Shown: positions 47,234 through 53,548 of the stretch, one piece after another
Layout: each line of letters starts with the position of its first letter
How positions within the stretch are numbered: the first letter of the stretch is position 1
Source: Candidatus Woesearchaeota archaeon
Lineage (GTDB): Archaea; Nanobdellota; Nanobdellia; Woesearchaeales; JAGVYF01
DNA length: 64,000 nucleotides
Assembly (NCBI GenBank): GCA_018303425.1
Contig: JAGVYF010000003.1
Coordinates: 5,150 to 69,149 of the forward strand
Reading direction: 5' to 3'
The notes under the pieces: generated by a model
Databases searched by the model: none
Seen by the model: the letters and a program-made list of their open reading frames with translations, nothing else
Told to the model about the DNA's origin: nothing
Program-made: the position numbers and the translations under genes

Positions 47234-48236
47234 TGTGTTATCCCTCAAATATTTCGCACTTGTTTAAAGTATGATAAAGCTGTTGCTTTATCCATGAAAT
47301 TAATAATTAAAAAACAGGTGCGTATAGTGAAAAGAAAACAAAATAGATTGTCATCAGCTTTAATCGCTAAGCAGTTTAATATTTCAAAACGCAGAGTGGA
47401 GCAAGTTTGGAGCTATTTCTGTAAAAATACCGCATATCTCCCGATACAAAAGCCAGGAAGGAAGCCTTATAGGAAGGAAATCCCTAATCTAAAAGATAGG
47501 ATACTTAGAATCCATAAGAAGCATAATTTTGGTGCTACTTATATTGCGAAATTTTTACGAGATAAACTTAAAATACCAATCTCAAATAATTATATTCATC
47601 AAATATTGCTTGATGGGGGATTAGCAATGCCAAATAAATGCAAACAAAAACGTAGAAAACCTTGGGTTAGGTATGAAAGGAGACATAGCTTGTCTGCGGT
47701 ACATATGGATTGGCATTATAGCTCTAAATTGAATAAATGGATGTGTGCAGTATTAGATGATGCTTCAAGAAAAATTATATCTGGTGGGGAGTATGATAAC
47801 GCATATGCAAGTCATTGTATAGATATGCTTGAAAAAGCATATGAGAAAAATAAACAGATAATTGGCATTAGGGAAGTGATTACCGATCATGGATCTCAAT
47901 TTTTTGCAAATAAAAAGAAAAACGATGGAGACCAATCTGAAAGTAAATTCCAGGAATACTGCAAGAATAAAGGAATTAATCATATTTTCTGTAAGTATCA
48001 TCATCCACAGACAAATGGGAAATTTGAAAAATGGAATCATACCTATGAACTACATAGATATAGGTTTAATTTTTTTGAAGAATTTGTCGATTGGTATAAC
48101 AATCGACCTCACGGAAGCCTTAATTTTATGACTCCGGAACAAGCGTTCTGGTTCAAAGCACAAGATATTATTTTAGGGTGGTTTTTTAAATGGGCAGAAC
48201 TAAATTAAAGATGCGAAATAATTACGAGATAACACA
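47234..48236 (+). mobile_element. Insertion sequence (IS481-like), ~1.0 kb, imperfect ~25-bp terminal IRs (TGTGTTATCC...TTTCGCA), 9-bp TSD ACGCTAAAA
   Basis: Left end TGTGTTATCCCTCAAATATTTCGCA. Right end (reverse complement) TGTGTTATCTCGTAATTATTTCGCA. Direct repeats ACGCTAAAA at 47224..47232 and 48237..48245. Confidence 0.7.
47294..48208 (+). CDS. Transposase, rve (DDE integrase-core) family with N-terminal HTH
   Basis: VHMDWHY, ITDHGSQF and HPQTNGKFEKWN form the DDE triad context. Confidence 0.75.
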   Translation: MKLIIKKQVRIVKRKQNRLSSALIAKQFNISKRRVEQVWSYFCKNTAYLPIQKPGRKPYRKEIPNLKDRILRIHKKHNFGATYIAKFLRDKLKIPISNNYIHQILLDGGLAMPNKCKQKRRKPWVRYERRHSLSAVHMDWHYSSKLNKWMCAVLDDASRKIISGGEYDNAYASHCIDMLEKAYEKNKQIIGIREVITDHGSQFFANKKKNDGDQSESKFQEYCKNKGINHIFCKYHHPQTNGKFEKWNHTYELHRYRFNFFEEFVDWYNNRPHGSLNFMTPEQAFWFKAQDIILGWFFKWAELN

Positions 48237-48287: not shown

Positions 48288-48653
48288 TGAAGTAGAAAGT
48301 TACTTAACCAACGGTAAACTATGAAAATTCAAGTGTTAAATCACTGAATTTTAAAGTTCACTGAGGAAAGTCCGTCCACCCCATATTTTATATGGAAGTA
48401 ATTGCTCATGAAAATGAGGCGGAGCAATCTGCGGCTCTGGGTAAGAAACACACGGCCATTAAGAATAGGAATGATGTGCGCGAAGCATTGGGTGACCGAT
48501 GTTAGTTAACCCACAGACGACCTTAATGGAAACGATGAAATCCGAACCCCTTTTGGTGCAAGTCATGTTGACGCTTAGTTGAATGTTAAGACAGTCTGTT
48601 CGACACTTTGTAACGAAGACTGACAAAAGACGGCTTATTACTCTCTACTTCAA
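48288..48653 (+). ncRNA. rnpB: RNase P RNA (archaeal)
   Basis: CR-I GAGGAAAGTCCG and CR-V ACAAAAGACGGCTTA are present. P4 forms as AAG-U-CCG with CGGCTT. P1 pairs TGAAGTAGAAAGT with ACTCTCTACTTCA (13 bp, 1 mismatch). Oligo-T terminator follows. Confidence 0.7.
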
Positions 48654-48699: not shown

Positions 48700-48873
48700 A
48701 TGACACAAGATAAAATTTCAATGCCTTCATCACAAAGCGGTTTAGTGCGTTATTATGAAGAATACAAGTCAAAAATTTTATTCAAACCTGAACACATTAT
48801 TCTTATTGCTGTTATCATAATAACTATAGAAATATTGCTTCATACATATGGCAATTCATTTTTGGGGTTATAA
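48700..48873 (+). CDS. Preprotein translocase subunit Sec61-beta (SecG archaeal type)
   Basis: 57 aa, not in the ORF track. SGLVRYYEE is followed by a single C-terminal TM helix IILIAVIIITIEILLH. Confidence 0.6.
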   Translation: MTQDKISMPSSQSGLVRYYEEYKSKILFKPEHIILIAVIIITIEILLHTYGNSFLGL

Positions 48874-48878
48874 ACAAT

Positions 48879-49217
48879 ATGTTTCCAGGCATGAATCCAC
48901 GAAAAATGCAGCAGATGATGAAACAGTTAGGTGTTAAACAAGAAGAAATCTCTGCTGAAGAAGTAATAATTAAAACTAAAAATAAAGAGCTTGTTTTTTC
49001 AAATCCGCAAGTGACAAAAGTTAATATGATGGGACAAGATACTTTCCAGTTAGTAGGAAACTTTATTGAAAGACAAATTTCGAGTATTCCTCAAATTGAC
49101 GAAGATGATATAAATACTGTTGCTGAACAAGCAAATGTTTCAACTGAAAAAGCAAAAGAGTCACTTAAAAAACATAAAGGAGACATTGCAGCGGCAATTC
49201 TAGACTTCCATGAATAA
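48879..49217 (+). CDS. nac: Nascent polypeptide-associated complex protein (NAC alpha with UBA domain)
   Basis: The NAC-domain beta core IIKTKNKELVFSNPQVTKV is followed by a C-terminal UBA-like helix bundle. Confidence 0.75.
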   Translation: MFPGMNPRKMQQMMKQLGVKQEEISAEEVIIKTKNKELVFSNPQVTKVNMMGQDTFQLVGNFIERQISSIPQIDEDDINTVAEQANVSTEKAKESLKKHKGDIAAAILDFHE

Positions 49218-49400: not shown

Positions 49401-49886
49401 ATGAGTGTTTATGATAAATATCTTCGAGAAGCTTCTAGGACATTTAAAATTGCAGACCACATGGTTTCGGTTACTTACCCGTTGGTAAAGGACACCAAAC
49501 TATTACTGGCAGTTCTAGAAAATTTAAATTTAACCCTAAAAAACTCAATTGCCGCCCTAGTCTATTATGATAGACACTACAAACGTTTACCCCCATTCCA
49601 AGACTCGTTCGAATCGCAATTTAATGTATTCAGAGCTAAAAGTGTTGAAAGGTATAAAATTGACAAATCATATATAACACTAATCCAAAATATTGAATCG
49701 CTAATCAAGGATCATAAAGCAAGTCCAATGGAATTTATCCGAAAAGACAAATTTGTTATTTGTTCAGATAACTATAACATTAAAACATTTTCACTCGAAA
49801 ATATCCGTGAATATGTCTCAAAAATAAAAGAATTTAAGGATAAAATATGTTTAATAATAAAAGAAAATGAAAGAATCTCTCCGTGA
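49401..49886 (+). CDS. Hypothetical protein, paralogue A of a tandem 161-aa pair
   Basis: LREASRTFKIADHMVSVTYPLVKD aligns with LRDALEEIKRVDHLIYVSLKY of the next ORF. Confidence 0.4.
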   Translation: MSVYDKYLREASRTFKIADHMVSVTYPLVKDTKLLLAVLENLNLTLKNSIAALVYYDRHYKRLPPFQDSFESQFNVFRAKSVERYKIDKSYITLIQNIESLIKDHKASPMEFIRKDKFVICSDNYNIKTFSLENIREYVSKIKEFKDKICLIIKENERISP

Positions 49887-50352
49887 TGCATTAGAAGAAA
49901 TAAAAAGAGTCGACCATTTGATTTATGTTAGTTTAAAATATACCCGAACGGTTGATGTAATAAAAAGCATTGTACAAAGAATGGTTGATGCAATGGATTT
50001 TCTAATAATGGCTAATCTTTTAACTGAAAAAGAATCCACCGCCGAAATTTTCCCGCAACATGCATCTGAAAGAGCAAGGTTACTAAAGTCTAACTTCCCG
50101 CAAAATAACCAATTACAAGATTATTTGGAATTTTATTTGTTGCTTAGAAAAGTATTAAGAGCAAAATATACTGCTTCACAAGAATTTAGAAGACATGTTA
50201 CAATGTCAGTAAATTTCACTGATGCAGATGAAAATTTAGATATAAATATTGATTTAATCTATGAATATTACGAAAAATTAAAAAACTTCTTTGATTATAC
50301 ATATCAATTAGTTGAAAATGCAGAAAAAACAAACGGCAAAGAAACGCCATAA
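49867..50352 (+). CDS. Hypothetical protein, paralogue B of the tandem pair
   Basis: Overlaps paralogue A by 20 nt and the downstream membrane ORF by 41 nt. Confidence 0.4.
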   Translation: MKESLRDALEEIKRVDHLIYVSLKYTRTVDVIKSIVQRMVDAMDFLIMANLLTEKESTAEIFPQHASERARLLKSNFPQNNQLQDYLEFYLLLRKVLRAKYTASQEFRRHVTMSVNFTDADENLDINIDLIYEYYEKLKNFFDYTYQLVENAEKTNGKETP

Positions 50353-50821
50353 TCAAAAAATAAGTAAAAGTTACAAACCACACTTTAATGTGCCATTAAG
50401 GCAAATAAATATGCCTCAGAGAAATAATGTTACATTTTGGATGGCTTTAGTAGTACTTTTGGTCTCAAATTTTACAATTTCAATTGTGCTTATTCCGTTT
50501 TTAATCATTCTTGAAAAAATGCCGTTATATACACTAATATTTTTAATTGGAATAATGTTTGGTTCATTATTTAAACTAACCTTAGACTCAATAAATAATT
50601 TAGAAAAAAAACATCAGAATATAGCAACATTTTTTATCCCTGCGCTTGCCATTGTAAATATAGCAGTTATTACCACGCTTAGCAATAAAATGGCTGAATT
50701 ACTTGAACTTAGCATAGCACATAATCCACCTATAATTGGATTAACATATGCATTAGCTTTTATTACGCCGTTCATTTACAAATCAATTCTAGATAAATTA
50801 AACTTTTTGATTTATAAATAA
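50312..50821 (+). CDS. Hypothetical membrane protein (4 TM), third gene of the operon
   Basis: Basic N-terminus followed by four hydrophobic helices. Confidence 0.4.
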   Translation: MKMQKKQTAKKRHNQKISKSYKPHFNVPLRQINMPQRNNVTFWMALVVLLVSNFTISIVLIPFLIILEKMPLYTLIFLIGIMFGSLFKLTLDSINNLEKKHQNIATFFIPALAIVNIAVITTLSNKMAELLELSIAHNPPIIGLTYALAFITPFIYKSILDKLNFLIYK

Positions 50822-50826
50822 AAAAA

Positions 50827-50990
50827 GGGCAGCGAGAGGGAGTCGAACCCTCCTCACAGGATTTCTGCAATTTGCCTTTAACCATCAGAAATGAGCTAAA
50901 ATAAAGTTTTTGCTCGCTGATTTTGGTCAAGCTTTTTGCTTGGCAAAAAGGTTGCCACAGTCCCATATTCTACCGATGAACTACCGCCGC
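50827..50990 (-). tRNA. tRNA-His (GTG) with encoded G-1 and a ~93-nt canonical intron
   Basis: Minus strand reads G-GCGGCGG-TA-GTTC-ATCGGTA-GAAT-A-TGGGA-CTGTGG[93 nt]A-TCCTG-TGAG-GAGGG-TTCGACT-CCCTC-TCGCTGC-C. Discriminator C73 pairs with G-1. A TATA box lies at about +51015..51025. Confidence 0.6.
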
Positions 50991-51400: not shown

Positions 51401-52021
51401 ATGAGAAGGAGAGAACTTCTGCAAAAACTAGCTGGAATTCAAACTATGGGTTCGGTTATGGATATACTTAAAGTAGATAAAAGAATGGCAATTTATTACA
51501 TACACCGCCTTAGAAAAGAAGGTTATGTTAAAACCAAGAGACAGAGCAATAATCGAAGAGTTTACAATATCTCACTTGAGAATAAATTAGGTGGCAAGAG
51601 CTATTACGAGATTATTAATCAACATTCCCCCATTAAAATCTCAACGCCAGTAATCTATAGAATATACGGTAAAGAACCAAGCCTAGAAGAAACCTTAATT
51701 TATGCAATAAAAACTAAAAGTATCAGGACTATTCTTGCGTCATTGGCTTTATTTGGAAAAATTATTAATTGGGTAGAATTATATAATATAGCTAAAAAGA
51801 ATAATATTGAAAGACAAGTTGGGGCATTATATGATCTTGCTCGCCAGATTATGAAGGTGAGAAAAATGTCTCCTAAATTTAGAAGTAGTACTCTCCCAAA
51901 AGAAAAATATAAGTTTGAATATGTTGTTCCAAAATTAAAATCTAGAGATTTTACTGGAATAGAAAAAATATGGAAAATTTATCTTCCGTTTAACAAGAAA
52001 GATTTGGAGGAGTACAAATGA
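51401..52021 (+). CDS. AbiEi-like antitoxin / transcriptional regulator (N-terminal wHTH)
   Basis: The N-terminal 60 aa are wHTH. 206 aa. The stop overlaps the next start (ATGA). Confidence 0.45.
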   Translation: MRRRELLQKLAGIQTMGSVMDILKVDKRMAIYYIHRLRKEGYVKTKRQSNNRRVYNISLENKLGGKSYYEIINQHSPIKISTPVIYRIYGKEPSLEETLIYAIKTKSIRTILASLALFGKIINWVELYNIAKKNNIERQVGALYDLARQIMKVRKMSPKFRSSTLPKEKYKFEYVVPKLKSRDFTGIEKIWKIYLPFNKKDLEEYK

Positions 52022-52686
52022 TTACTATAGACCAACAGCAAAAATTATTATTAAATGTTGCTAGAAGACTTAGCAAGAAAATAACTATTTACGCCATTGG
52101 CGGAACTGCCATGATGTTCCTTGGTTTTAAAGATGCAACTTTAGATATTGATCTAGTCTTTAAGAATGAAAAAGACCGCGCTGTATTCAAAGAAGCTGTA
52201 AAATCTTTAGGTTATTTAGAAATGGACGCTATTAAGATTTACGGAGTAAAACGAAATACACCTGAGATGTTTAAGCTTAACGATGAACGCTTTGATTTAT
52301 TTGTAGTAGAAGTAGTTGATTTTATCTTTTCAGAAAATATGAAACAAAGAACCGAACAAACGCATCAGTTCGGAGAAACACTCATTCTAAAAATAGCCAA
52401 TCCCCATGATATTATCCTTATGAAATGTGCTACTGATCGTTTAAAAGACAAAGACGATGCAAGAAGAATTATTAATTCCACAAAAATAAATTGGGATACC
52501 ATTATAGGAGAAGCTAAAAACCAAATGGAATTGGGAAAAGAAAGAGCAGTATTTGATTTAACTTGTTTTTTAGAAGATCTTAGAAAAATGATGGGAGTAA
52601 ATATTCCTTCAGAAATTATGGACAAACTCTTTGATTTAATTGAAAGACAGGTAAAAGAAAAAAAGAAAAAGGCTAGAGAAAATTAA
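52018..52686 (+). CDS. AbiEii-like nucleotidyltransferase toxin (DUF1814-type)
   Basis: IYAIGGTAMMFLGFKDATLDIDLV is the GGTAL...DID motif of AbiEii/AbiGii NTases. Confidence 0.5.
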   Translation: MITIDQQQKLLLNVARRLSKKITIYAIGGTAMMFLGFKDATLDIDLVFKNEKDRAVFKEAVKSLGYLEMDAIKIYGVKRNTPEMFKLNDERFDLFVVEVVDFIFSENMKQRTEQTHQFGETLILKIANPHDIILMKCATDRLKDKDDARRIINSTKINWDTIIGEAKNQMELGKERAVFDLTCFLEDLRKMMGVNIPSEIMDKLFDLIERQVKEKKKKAREN

Positions 52687-53015: not shown

Positions 53016-53255
53016 ATGGTACAAGCACTTGTAGAAATTAATGATAATACGAATCGTGTGTTAAATGTTGTTAAGGCAAAATTCGGACTTAAGGATAAAG
53101 GTAAGGCTATCGAATTTGTTGTTTCTGAATTTATTGAGTTTGAGAACGAGCCTGAATTAGCACCTGGTTTTATTCAAAAGATTGAAGAAATTAAGAAACA
53201 AAAAAGCATTAAAGTAACTGATTTTGCAAAACGATATGGACTTAAAAGTTCATAA
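53016..53255 (+). CDS. Putative antitoxin of the RelE/ParE-type pair
   Basis: 79 aa. Lies 14 nt upstream of the toxin gene. Confidence 0.45.
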   Translation: MVQALVEINDNTNRVLNVVKAKFGLKDKGKAIEFVVSEFIEFENEPELAPGFIQKIEEIKKQKSIKVTDFAKRYGLKSS

Positions 53256-53269
53256 AAAAGAGTTGATAA

Positions 53270-53548
53270 TTGATATATGATCTAAAGATTAAACCTGAAA
53301 TTGATAAGATATTCTCAAAACTAGCAAAGAAGAATCCTCAGCAATTGATGATTATTGACAAGAAAATAAATGAAATTCGAGAAGATCCTTCGGGTTATAA
53401 GTTCTTAAGAAAGCCTCTTAATGGTTTTAATAGAGTCCATATCGATAAGCACTTCGTCCTTATATTTCAAGTAAACCATCATAAAAAAGTGGTAGAAATT
53501 TACTATTTCGACCATCACGATTCTGTATACGCTTGGAGACCGAAGTAA
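53270..53548 (+). CDS. RelE/ParE-family toxin
   Basis: LRKPLNGFNRVHIDKHFVLIFQVNHHKKVVEIYYFDHHDSVY matches the RelE/ParE C-terminal signature. Confidence 0.6.
   Translation: MIYDLKIKPEIDKIFSKLAKKNPQQLMIIDKKINEIREDPSGYKFLRKPLNGFNRVHIDKHFVLIFQVNHHKKVVEIYYFDHHDSVYAWRPK

Follow-up and report, generated by a model that had tools for sequence, protein, structure and literature searches.

Conserved tandem HEPN-fold proteins and a basic membrane protein encoded in an operon of Woesearchaeota-type archaea

Which function is served by three overlapping genes of a DPANN archaeon, none of which matches a known sequence family? The genes occupy positions 49,401 to 50,821 of a 64,000-nt stretch (the window, below) of contig JAGVYF010000003.1 from a Candidatus Woesearchaeota archaeon (assembly GCA_018303425.1) and are denominated here A, B and C (Table 1). 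A preliminary description, made from the sequence alone, had taken A and B for tandem paralogues and C for their membrane partner, in a layout recalling small defence or toxin-immunity modules. Here we report that A and B, judged by their family profiles, are real, old and diverged paralogues, that both have the HEPN fold in structural models, and that they are coupled with C in one operon. The locus keeps a fixed position near the genes for Sec61beta, NAC, RNase P RNA and rpS13, relatives of B are encoded by 557 stretches of species-representative genomes, and no copies of B were found in viral, plasmid or phage sequences. On this basis the module appears to serve an undescribed core function of the cell and not to be a mobile module for defence or toxicity.

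DPANN genomes are tiny, and a large share of their conserved genes has no assigned function. The module belongs to these genes, with a fixed place beside core information-processing genes in hundreds of species. The HEPN assignment of A and B leads to a concrete hypothesis, namely that of an RNA- or nucleotide-handling heterodimer, and the ancestral tie to archaeal MinD and to a new membrane protein provides one of few approaches to the role of MinD in archaea. The module also warns against taking every HEPN protein of a tight small operon for a toxin.

The paralogous HEPN-fold proteins A and B

The positions and lengths described earlier for the three open reading frames (ORFs) match the mechanical ORF list exactly, and the 20-nt overlap between A and B in the window was reproduced. 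The overlap between B and C amounts to the 41 nt described if C is counted from its TTG codon, and to 35 nt if it is counted from the first ATG at 50318 (MQKK...). One gene caller picked Met34 as the start of C (P0241, 136 aa), which would leave B and C without overlap; an overlapping start is likely because the overlap encodes a basic N-terminal tail (MQKK...K.R.N.K) that is kept in close relatives. The G+C content of the window is about 31%, and the sequence of its B protein is that of MBS3112642.1, annotated as hypothetical in a metagenome-assembled genome (MAG) of Candidatus Woesearchaeota.

The paralogy of A and B had been proposed from a motif shared by their N-termini. Pairwise BLASTP aligns only the N-terminal 35 residues, those of that motif (20% identity, E=0.053), a match which alone would not exceed chance, whereas comparison of the two family profiles with hhalign gives a probability of 97.5% and E=7e-12 over 156 columns, that is over the full length, and bears the proposal out. 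The identical length of 161 aa is exact in the window but is a coincidence, as lengths within the family vary between about 150 and 175 aa. Both families are large. A word-index search returned 130 clusters for A, and an exhaustive search 1027 representatives at 50% identity with E<=1e-3 (811 with E<=1e-10); among the 150 A-family matches listed all are single-domain proteins, most of them of 150–170 aa. The B family comprises more than 2251 clusters.

No significant Pfam, NCBIfam or PADLOC model was found for A, B or C, whether single proteins or every member of the alignments were scanned, and sequence-profile searches of the PDB with the three families gave no match below E=0.02. Weak matches of B to Bromodomain and Imm41 were judged to be noise. 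The literature searched (HEPN with MinD or with Woesearchaeota; MinD operons of DPANN) does not describe the A/B family.

Structure prediction, which the preliminary description had recommended, changes this picture. AlphaFold2 models of A and B built from the family alignments reached predicted local distance difference test (pLDDT) values of 87.5 and 85.3 and predicted template modelling (pTM) scores of 0.83 and 0.82, respectively. The two models have the same architecture, which starts with two long helices, continues through a loop with a short helix and a further (fourth) helix to a beta meander of three strands, and closes with a long helix at the C-terminus. Confidence is lowest in the beta region (pLDDT 62–75 in A). 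Read as HEPN proteins, A and B have the core of four helices; one additional helix is placed between the second and the third of these, and three beta strands are inserted ahead of the last. The closest folds are HEPN proteins associated with minimal nucleotidyltransferases (MNT) and the HepT toxins. By their models, A and B are thus HEPN-fold proteins, and the earlier statement that they lack known domains holds at the level of sequence (Pfam, NCBIfam, PADLOC) and fails at the level of the fold. Sequence profiles lend no support of their own. Pfam matches are faint: of 46 A members two match HEPN_AbiU2 (best E=0.0035), and of 35 B members two match HEPN_RiboL-PSP (E=0.11). When the two family profiles were aligned by hhalign with a canonical HEPN protein of the MNT-associated kind from a related locus (L059), the result was not significant and covered the last helix only (E=0.016, probability 2.8%).

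The HEPN fold is typical of many RNA-cutting toxins and defence ribonucleases, and the state of the active site is consequently of importance. According to a survey of the superfamily (PMC3710099), core helix 3 ends in an Rx4-6H motif, a conserved acidic residue is found at helix 2, and helices 2 and 3 are separated by an insert that varies; the anatomy of A and B fits this layout. We mapped these features on 164 A and 193 B sequences. The acidic residue is D31 in A (159/164) and D30 in B (193/193), located at the turn between helices 1 and 2 or at the start of helix 2. In A, His105 is present in 157 sequences (96%), and K (100 sequences) or R (37) occupies position 99, together 84%, giving [K/R]99-x5-H105, although A of the window carries Glu99. 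In B, Arg94 at the end of helix 3 is found in 191 sequences, but position 100, six residues further on, varies between E, K, D, P and S and is never a conserved His; the conserved His residues of B lie elsewhere (H17 and H110, both invariant). The Rx4-6H motif is therefore partial in A and missing in B, which makes classical HEPN ribonuclease chemistry doubtful, and the Rx4HxY motif is absent from both sets of sequences.

Both families carry non-canonical features: a D-H dyad in helix 1 (A18-D19-H20 in A, nt 49452–49460; D16-H17 in B) and, where the first beta strand lies, an invariant E-F. In B this pair is part of a longer invariant run in the beta insert, E106-F-R108-R109-H110 (nt 50182–50196). 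The other invariant or near-invariant residues of A are D31, K33, H105, S108, P109, E111-F112 and Y125. Helix 1 of B and the following turn are almost fully invariant (E11, K13, R14, D16, H17 ... S22, K24, Y25, R27, D30, R38), and the stretch of residues 11–31 is so strongly conserved that it points to a conserved macromolecular partner or substrate. The many invariant Arg, His, Asp and Glu residues of B suggest a nucleic-acid or nucleotide site. This large pair of HEPN-fold families is new, both in its non-canonical set of motifs and in its gene context of tandem paralogues, archaeal MinD and a new membrane protein with four hydrophobic segments.

Two further ideas on the paralogue pair were pursued and rejected. 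A complementary active site, to which B would contribute Arg and Glu and A the His, was dropped, since the variability of position 100 implies that Glu100 of B is not catalytic; what survives, a shared site with R from B and H from A, is speculation. Changes in B that might compensate for the loss of A gave no signal, as His34 occurs in the large clade with B and C only and not in the independent losses at L015, L021, L070, L075 and L079.

Operon architectures, the archaeal MinD gene and protein C

Relatives of B were collected with a pattern and tblastn scan of one genome per GTDB species, which returned 557 stretches. The best 80 of the 557 were examined, and these are labelled Woesearchaeota, Nanoarchaeota or Nanoarchaeia. 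Together with five loci from exact-protein look-ups and the window they make up 86 loci, at which ORFs were classified by hidden Markov models for A, B, C, MinD, NAC, Sec61beta, rpS13 and a THUMP methyltransferase. At almost every locus the gene order is THUMP methyltransferase - Sec61beta - NAC - (A) - B - (D) - C - ... - rpS13, where D denotes a MinD gene. The neighbourhood is thus conserved far beyond the window, a point on which the proposed module could have failed. Many third-party MAGs with the same syntenic block are titled 'uncultured Methanosarcinales archaeon' (L012, L016, L019–L021 and many others); these titles are probably taxonomic mislabelling because the synteny is of the Woesearchaeota type.

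B is found at every locus, and its companions vary. The most frequent architecture is B-C (31 of 86 loci), followed by A-B-D-C (22), the A-B-C type of the window (18), A-B (9), B alone (3), B-D-C (2) and A-B-D (1). Most junctions overlap: A and B by 20 nt at 22 of 50 loci, B and D as well as D and C by 4 or 8 nt. The 20-nt overlap results from a B start (ATG AAA GA) that lies inside the conserved C-terminal K-N-E-R of A. The recurrence of such overlaps across related loci confirms the tight coupling of a paralogue pair and a membrane partner described for the window.

D follows B directly at 25 of the 86 loci. It encodes an ATPase of 218–265 aa which reaches 197 bits on TIGR01969 (minD_arch), just under the curated cut-off of 201.75. 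Most copies have a deviant Walker A motif (KGGxGKT), and about half end in an amphipathic C-terminal tail like the membrane-targeting helix of MinD. In a rough neighbour-joining tree of B, from which the order of gains and losses was inferred, A-B-D-C occurs on most deep branches; MinD was lost several times, including in the clade of the window, A in one large and a few small clades, and C together with D in one clade. The A-B-C operon of the window is therefore apparently a reduced form of an older four-gene cluster. That this cluster is a unit in its own right follows from loci at which it is intact with foreign flanks (L002) or next to an inverted Sec61beta-NAC pair (L010). On its 1.84-Mb contig, which belongs to a much larger genome, L002 (5001–7225) carries A-B-MinD-C beside genes for a heterodisulfide-reductase-like protein, a NUDIX protein, deoxyhypusine synthase and CDC48; the vicinity contains neither Sec61beta nor NAC, nor is RNase P RNA present within 5 kb.

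C stands after B or MinD at 73 of the 86 loci and is homologous across them (70 distinct sequences), with a conserved IEHLExKHH loop and NP and LPY motifs. Outside the clade of the window its N-terminus usually contains an L-x-K-K-G-W-S-x-x-E-I mini-domain, which the window clade lacks. The earlier characterization of C as a basic protein with four transmembrane (TM) segments stands: its net charge is +13, with 11 K/R among the first 40 residues, and it shows three strong hydrophobic segments and a weaker one (about 1.5 on the Kyte-Doolittle scale in the window, above threshold in homologues). This pattern fits a predicted topology with the N-terminus inside, four TM segments and the basic residues in the cytoplasm. 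The TM segments contain polar residues. No Pfam or PDB family was found for C, and it resembles none of the known subunits of translocon, insertase or RNase P. A metalloprotease, for which the IEHLExKHH loop was considered, was rejected, as there is no HExxH motif and the window copy reads INNLEKKHQN.

These results can be joined in one reading, which we put forward tentatively and which, taken as a whole, may well be right without being probable. A, B and C would form a vertically inherited operon specific to DPANN archaea of the Woesearchaeota/Nanoarchaeota type, reduced from a unit of HEPN-A, HEPN-B, archaeal MinD and a four-TM protein. HEPN domains generally act in pairs, and A and B would for this reason most likely form a heterodimer, with B as a homodimer where A is absent. 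Polar residues, namely the D-H dyad, the Arg/Lys of helix 3, His105 of A and the E-F-R-R-H of B, would gather at the usual HEPN active-site pole. Docked by C on the cytoplasmic side of the membrane, the heterodimer would bind and possibly cleave RNA, or would bind a nucleotide. In relatives the membrane-binding MinD, whose gene the lineage of the window would have lost from the operon, would regulate or position the complex.

A bolder form of this proposal gives A and B a housekeeping role as a heterodimer tethered to the membrane, either a HEPN ribonuclease or an RNA binder, whose non-canonical active site would consist of the D-H dyad, the helix-3 Arg and E-F-R-R-H. Anchored by C and ancestrally governed by MinD, it would have its RNA targets at the membrane or would take part in RNA maturation, in keeping with the adjacent genes for RNase P RNA, Sec61beta and NAC. 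We consider this version quite improbable. If it were true, the complex would in principle be an archaeal counterpart of Ire1-like RNA surveillance at membranes or, alternatively, a new RNA-processing factor specific to Woesearchaeota-type DPANN.

Several points weigh against the reading as an RNA- or nucleotide-handling complex at the membrane. No sequence profile ties A and B to a Pfam HEPN family. The canonical motif is incomplete, owing to the variable His position of B and to position 99 of A, usually Lys but Glu in the window, and that conserved residues cluster at one pole of the bundle is deduced from topology only. The heterodimer, the membrane docking, the RNA substrate and catalysis are steps that we infer. 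A, C and D are each missing from the locus in some lineages (B-C at 31, A-B at 9 of 86 loci), so that none of the proposed partnerships is obligatory. Finally, the translation and secretion genes nearby may reflect inertia of gene order rather than a functional link.

The degenerate HEPN motif also favours the main rival, in which A and B are catalytically dead HEPN scaffolds that serve as partners or adaptors of archaeal MinD, with C as a membrane receptor or cargo. Such a system would position something at the membrane (a division site, an envelope or an attachment structure), and in the lineage of the window the ATPase would be encoded elsewhere or dispensed with. The placement of MinD after B, with overlaps of the translational-coupling kind and on most deep branches, agrees with this, as does the MinD-like amphipathic tail of many D copies. 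ParA/MinD ATPases generally have cognate partners, which they often meet via basic N-terminal peptides, and C has a basic N-terminus predicted to be cytoplasmic. Most loci including the window, however, have no operon MinD (B-C, A-B-C, A-B and B alone), yet B and C are strongly conserved there, and tblastn found no MinD gene anywhere in the 64-kb window. The invariant charged residues of B exceed what a pure scaffold usually needs, and A and B have no similarity to MinC, MinE or other known partners. We therefore regard this rival as rather unlikely and keep to the tentative proposal of an RNA- or nucleotide-handling pair.

Toxin-antitoxin and defence systems

The suggestion of a defence or toxin-immunity module did not hold up. 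Mobile toxin-antitoxin (TA) and defence genes are patchy and occur in viruses, plasmids or defence islands, whereas A–C share the same synteny at almost all 86 loci. B has no match in IMG/VR viral contigs, PLSDB plasmids or phage genomes, and PADLOC returned no match for B or C and one at chance level for A (E=0.045). Together with the fixed core site, the degenerate HEPN motif speaks against the suggestion as well.

As a TA or anti-virus system, A and/or B would be a HEPN ribonuclease toxin restrained by its paralogue, by the membrane protein or by the MinD/ParA-like ATPase, the last in the manner predicted for bacterial MAE_18760 dyads. The proximity of the fold to MNT-associated HEPN proteins and HepT toxins would agree with this, as would the small, tightly overlapping genes, the TA-like pairs that do lie close by (51401–52686 and 53016–53548; see below) and a published precedent: dyads of MAE_18760-family HEPN proteins with ParA/Soj ATPases are predicted TA systems (Anantharaman et al. 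2013, PMC3710099). Against it stand the fixed position among core genes, a B tree consistent with vertical descent, the missing mobile copies of B, the lack of a meaningful PADLOC match and the lack of an adjacent MNT gene and of Rx4HxY. In addition, each candidate antitoxin (A, D and C) has been lost in lineages where B stays unchanged at every invariant position. A TA system is for these reasons very unlikely.

No MNT gene adjoins the operon, which has NAC upstream and, after the first HEPN gene, a paralogue and a membrane protein downstream; the DUF6036 nucleotidyltransferase of the window belongs to a separate pair beyond a tRNA gene. At one related locus (L059, 4221–5158, minus strand) a canonical HEPN and MNT pair lies downstream of B, in a clade without C and MinD, and it allows a mobile HEPN-MNT module to be contrasted with the A/B genes, whose place is fixed.

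The differences from known HEPN systems can be stated more closely. AF0298 or UPF0332-type proteins (PDB 2hsb) and small MNT-associated HEPN proteins (1wwp, 1wol, 1ufb, 1ylm) resemble A and B in size, in consisting of one domain, in the up-down core of four helices and in the insert that separates helix 2 from helix 3. Some members of this group have replaced the motif His and conserve a His elsewhere (PMC3710099), a description that B fits. A and B are, however, only 10–14% identical to these proteins and give no profile match, and they differ in the three-strand beta insert with its invariant E-F, in the helix-1 D-H dyad, in having no adjacent nucleotidyltransferase and in their fixed core site instead of scattered TA loci. 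In comparison with HepT-MntA (HEPN-MNT, type VII; 5yep, 7ae2, 8xdj, 6m6u), A and B lack the MNT partner, Rx4HxY and the position of the AMPylated Tyr; the module is not mobile, and what stands beside the HEPN protein is a paralogue of it together with a membrane protein.

With the MAE_18760 dyads the cluster shares a HEPN gene beside an ATPase of the ParA/MinD class, in those relatives which keep D. The dyads are bacterial, consist of two genes and have the canonical Rx4-6H, whereas the cluster is archaeal, has four genes and combines two HEPN paralogues with a membrane protein; its ATPase belongs to the archaeal MinD subfamily and is missing from the window, where neither the operon nor the 64 kb contain a MinD/ParA gene. 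A Min system, in which MinD goes with MinC and/or MinE, is likewise not matched in the window: MinD is absent, and A, B and C carry no MinC or MinE signal. The D proteins of relatives resemble archaeal MinD (TIGR01969) in their deviant Walker A and often in the amphipathic tail, with a score just below the cut-off. A HEPN-fold partner of archaeal MinD is not described in the literature searched.

A looser parallel is offered by the Cas13b accessories Csx27 (multi-TM) and Csx28 (TM and a divergent HEPN domain), in which small multi-pass membrane proteins or membrane anchoring go together with divergent HEPN domains. The proteins described here have no CRISPR-Cas context and no sequence relationship to these accessories, are separate proteins and stand in housekeeping synteny.

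Chromosomal neighbourhood

The features around the operon are collected in Table 1. Sec61beta and NAC open the block that continues with (A)-B. The distance from the end of NAC to A or B is 10–60 nt at most loci and 183 nt in the window. The RNase P RNA of the window lies between the rve transposase ORF, on the THUMP side, and Sec61beta.

Table 1. Coordinates in the window of the operon and of neighbouring features.
Feature	Position	Strand	Remarks
Gene A	49401..49886	+	161 aa; HEPN-fold paralogue (model) retaining the His of the HEPN motif
Gene B	49867..50352	+	161 aa; HEPN fold (model); member found at every related locus
Gene C	50312..50821	+	169 aa from TTG, about 167 aa from the probable ATG 50318; basic, four hydrophobic segments
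Sec61beta	48700..48873	+	Pfam Sec61_beta 8.4e-12; first gene of the Sec61beta-NAC-(A)-B block
NAC	48879..49217	+	Pfam NAC 1.1e-15; directly upstream of A or B at almost all loci
Archaeal RNase P RNA	48331..48645	+	RF00373 81.2 bits, E=7e-22; just under the gathering score of 84
tRNA with insert of about 95 nt in the anticodon-loop region	50828..50990	-	RF00005 35.9 bits; convergent, starts 7 nt past the stop of C
rve (integrase-core) transposase ORF	47294..48208	+	between the THUMP methyltransferase and RNase P RNA genes
Winged helix-turn-helix (wHTH; weak HTH matches) and DUF6036 nucleotidyltransferase, overlapping	51401..52686	+	nucleotidyltransferase at 52018–52686
DUF2683-like small protein and ParE/RelE-like toxin	53016..53548	+	Pfam ParE_toxin E=4e-4, below cut-off; just upstream of the isoleucyl-tRNA synthetase gene

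This neighbourhood raises the possibility that the module is an accessory of co-translational targeting or translocation, or of RNase P or RNA maturation. Besides the short distance to NAC, the RNase P RNA gene speaks for such a role: in 9 of 11 sources (the window and 8 of 10 other loci) no more than about 1.2 kb separate it from the block (Sec61beta-NAC and module), in either orientation and even after local inversions (L014, L069). It scores 97–163 bits in L001, L004, L009, L010, L014, L030, L051, L064 and L069, and in L010 its distance from the block is about 4 kb. Furthermore, C is a conserved membrane protein with polar TM residues, ribosomal protein genes follow downstream, and MinD is a SIMIBI-class relative of the NTPases of the signal recognition particle (SRP) and of Get3. 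On the other side, A-B-D-C persists without these neighbours (L002) and beside an inverted Sec61beta-NAC pair (L010), the RNase P RNA moves with the THUMP gene and not with A and B (L069), and C is unlike the known subunits of the machineries concerned. As the order of core genes is often conserved without a functional link, an accessory role deduced from the neighbourhood is improbable in our view.

The tRNA beside C was missed by ARAGORN and detected with Rfam; its insert is presumably an archaeal intron, and at L001 a tRNA occupies the equivalent place after C.

The synteny of the window is broken by three probable insertions, that is the rve ORF, the wHTH and DUF6036 pair and the pair of a DUF2683-like and a ParE-like protein. 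The wHTH and DUF6036 pair resembles AbiEi/AbiEii-like or MNT-type TA systems, and related loci have no such pair at this place. The pair at 53016–53548 is likely a second TA insertion.

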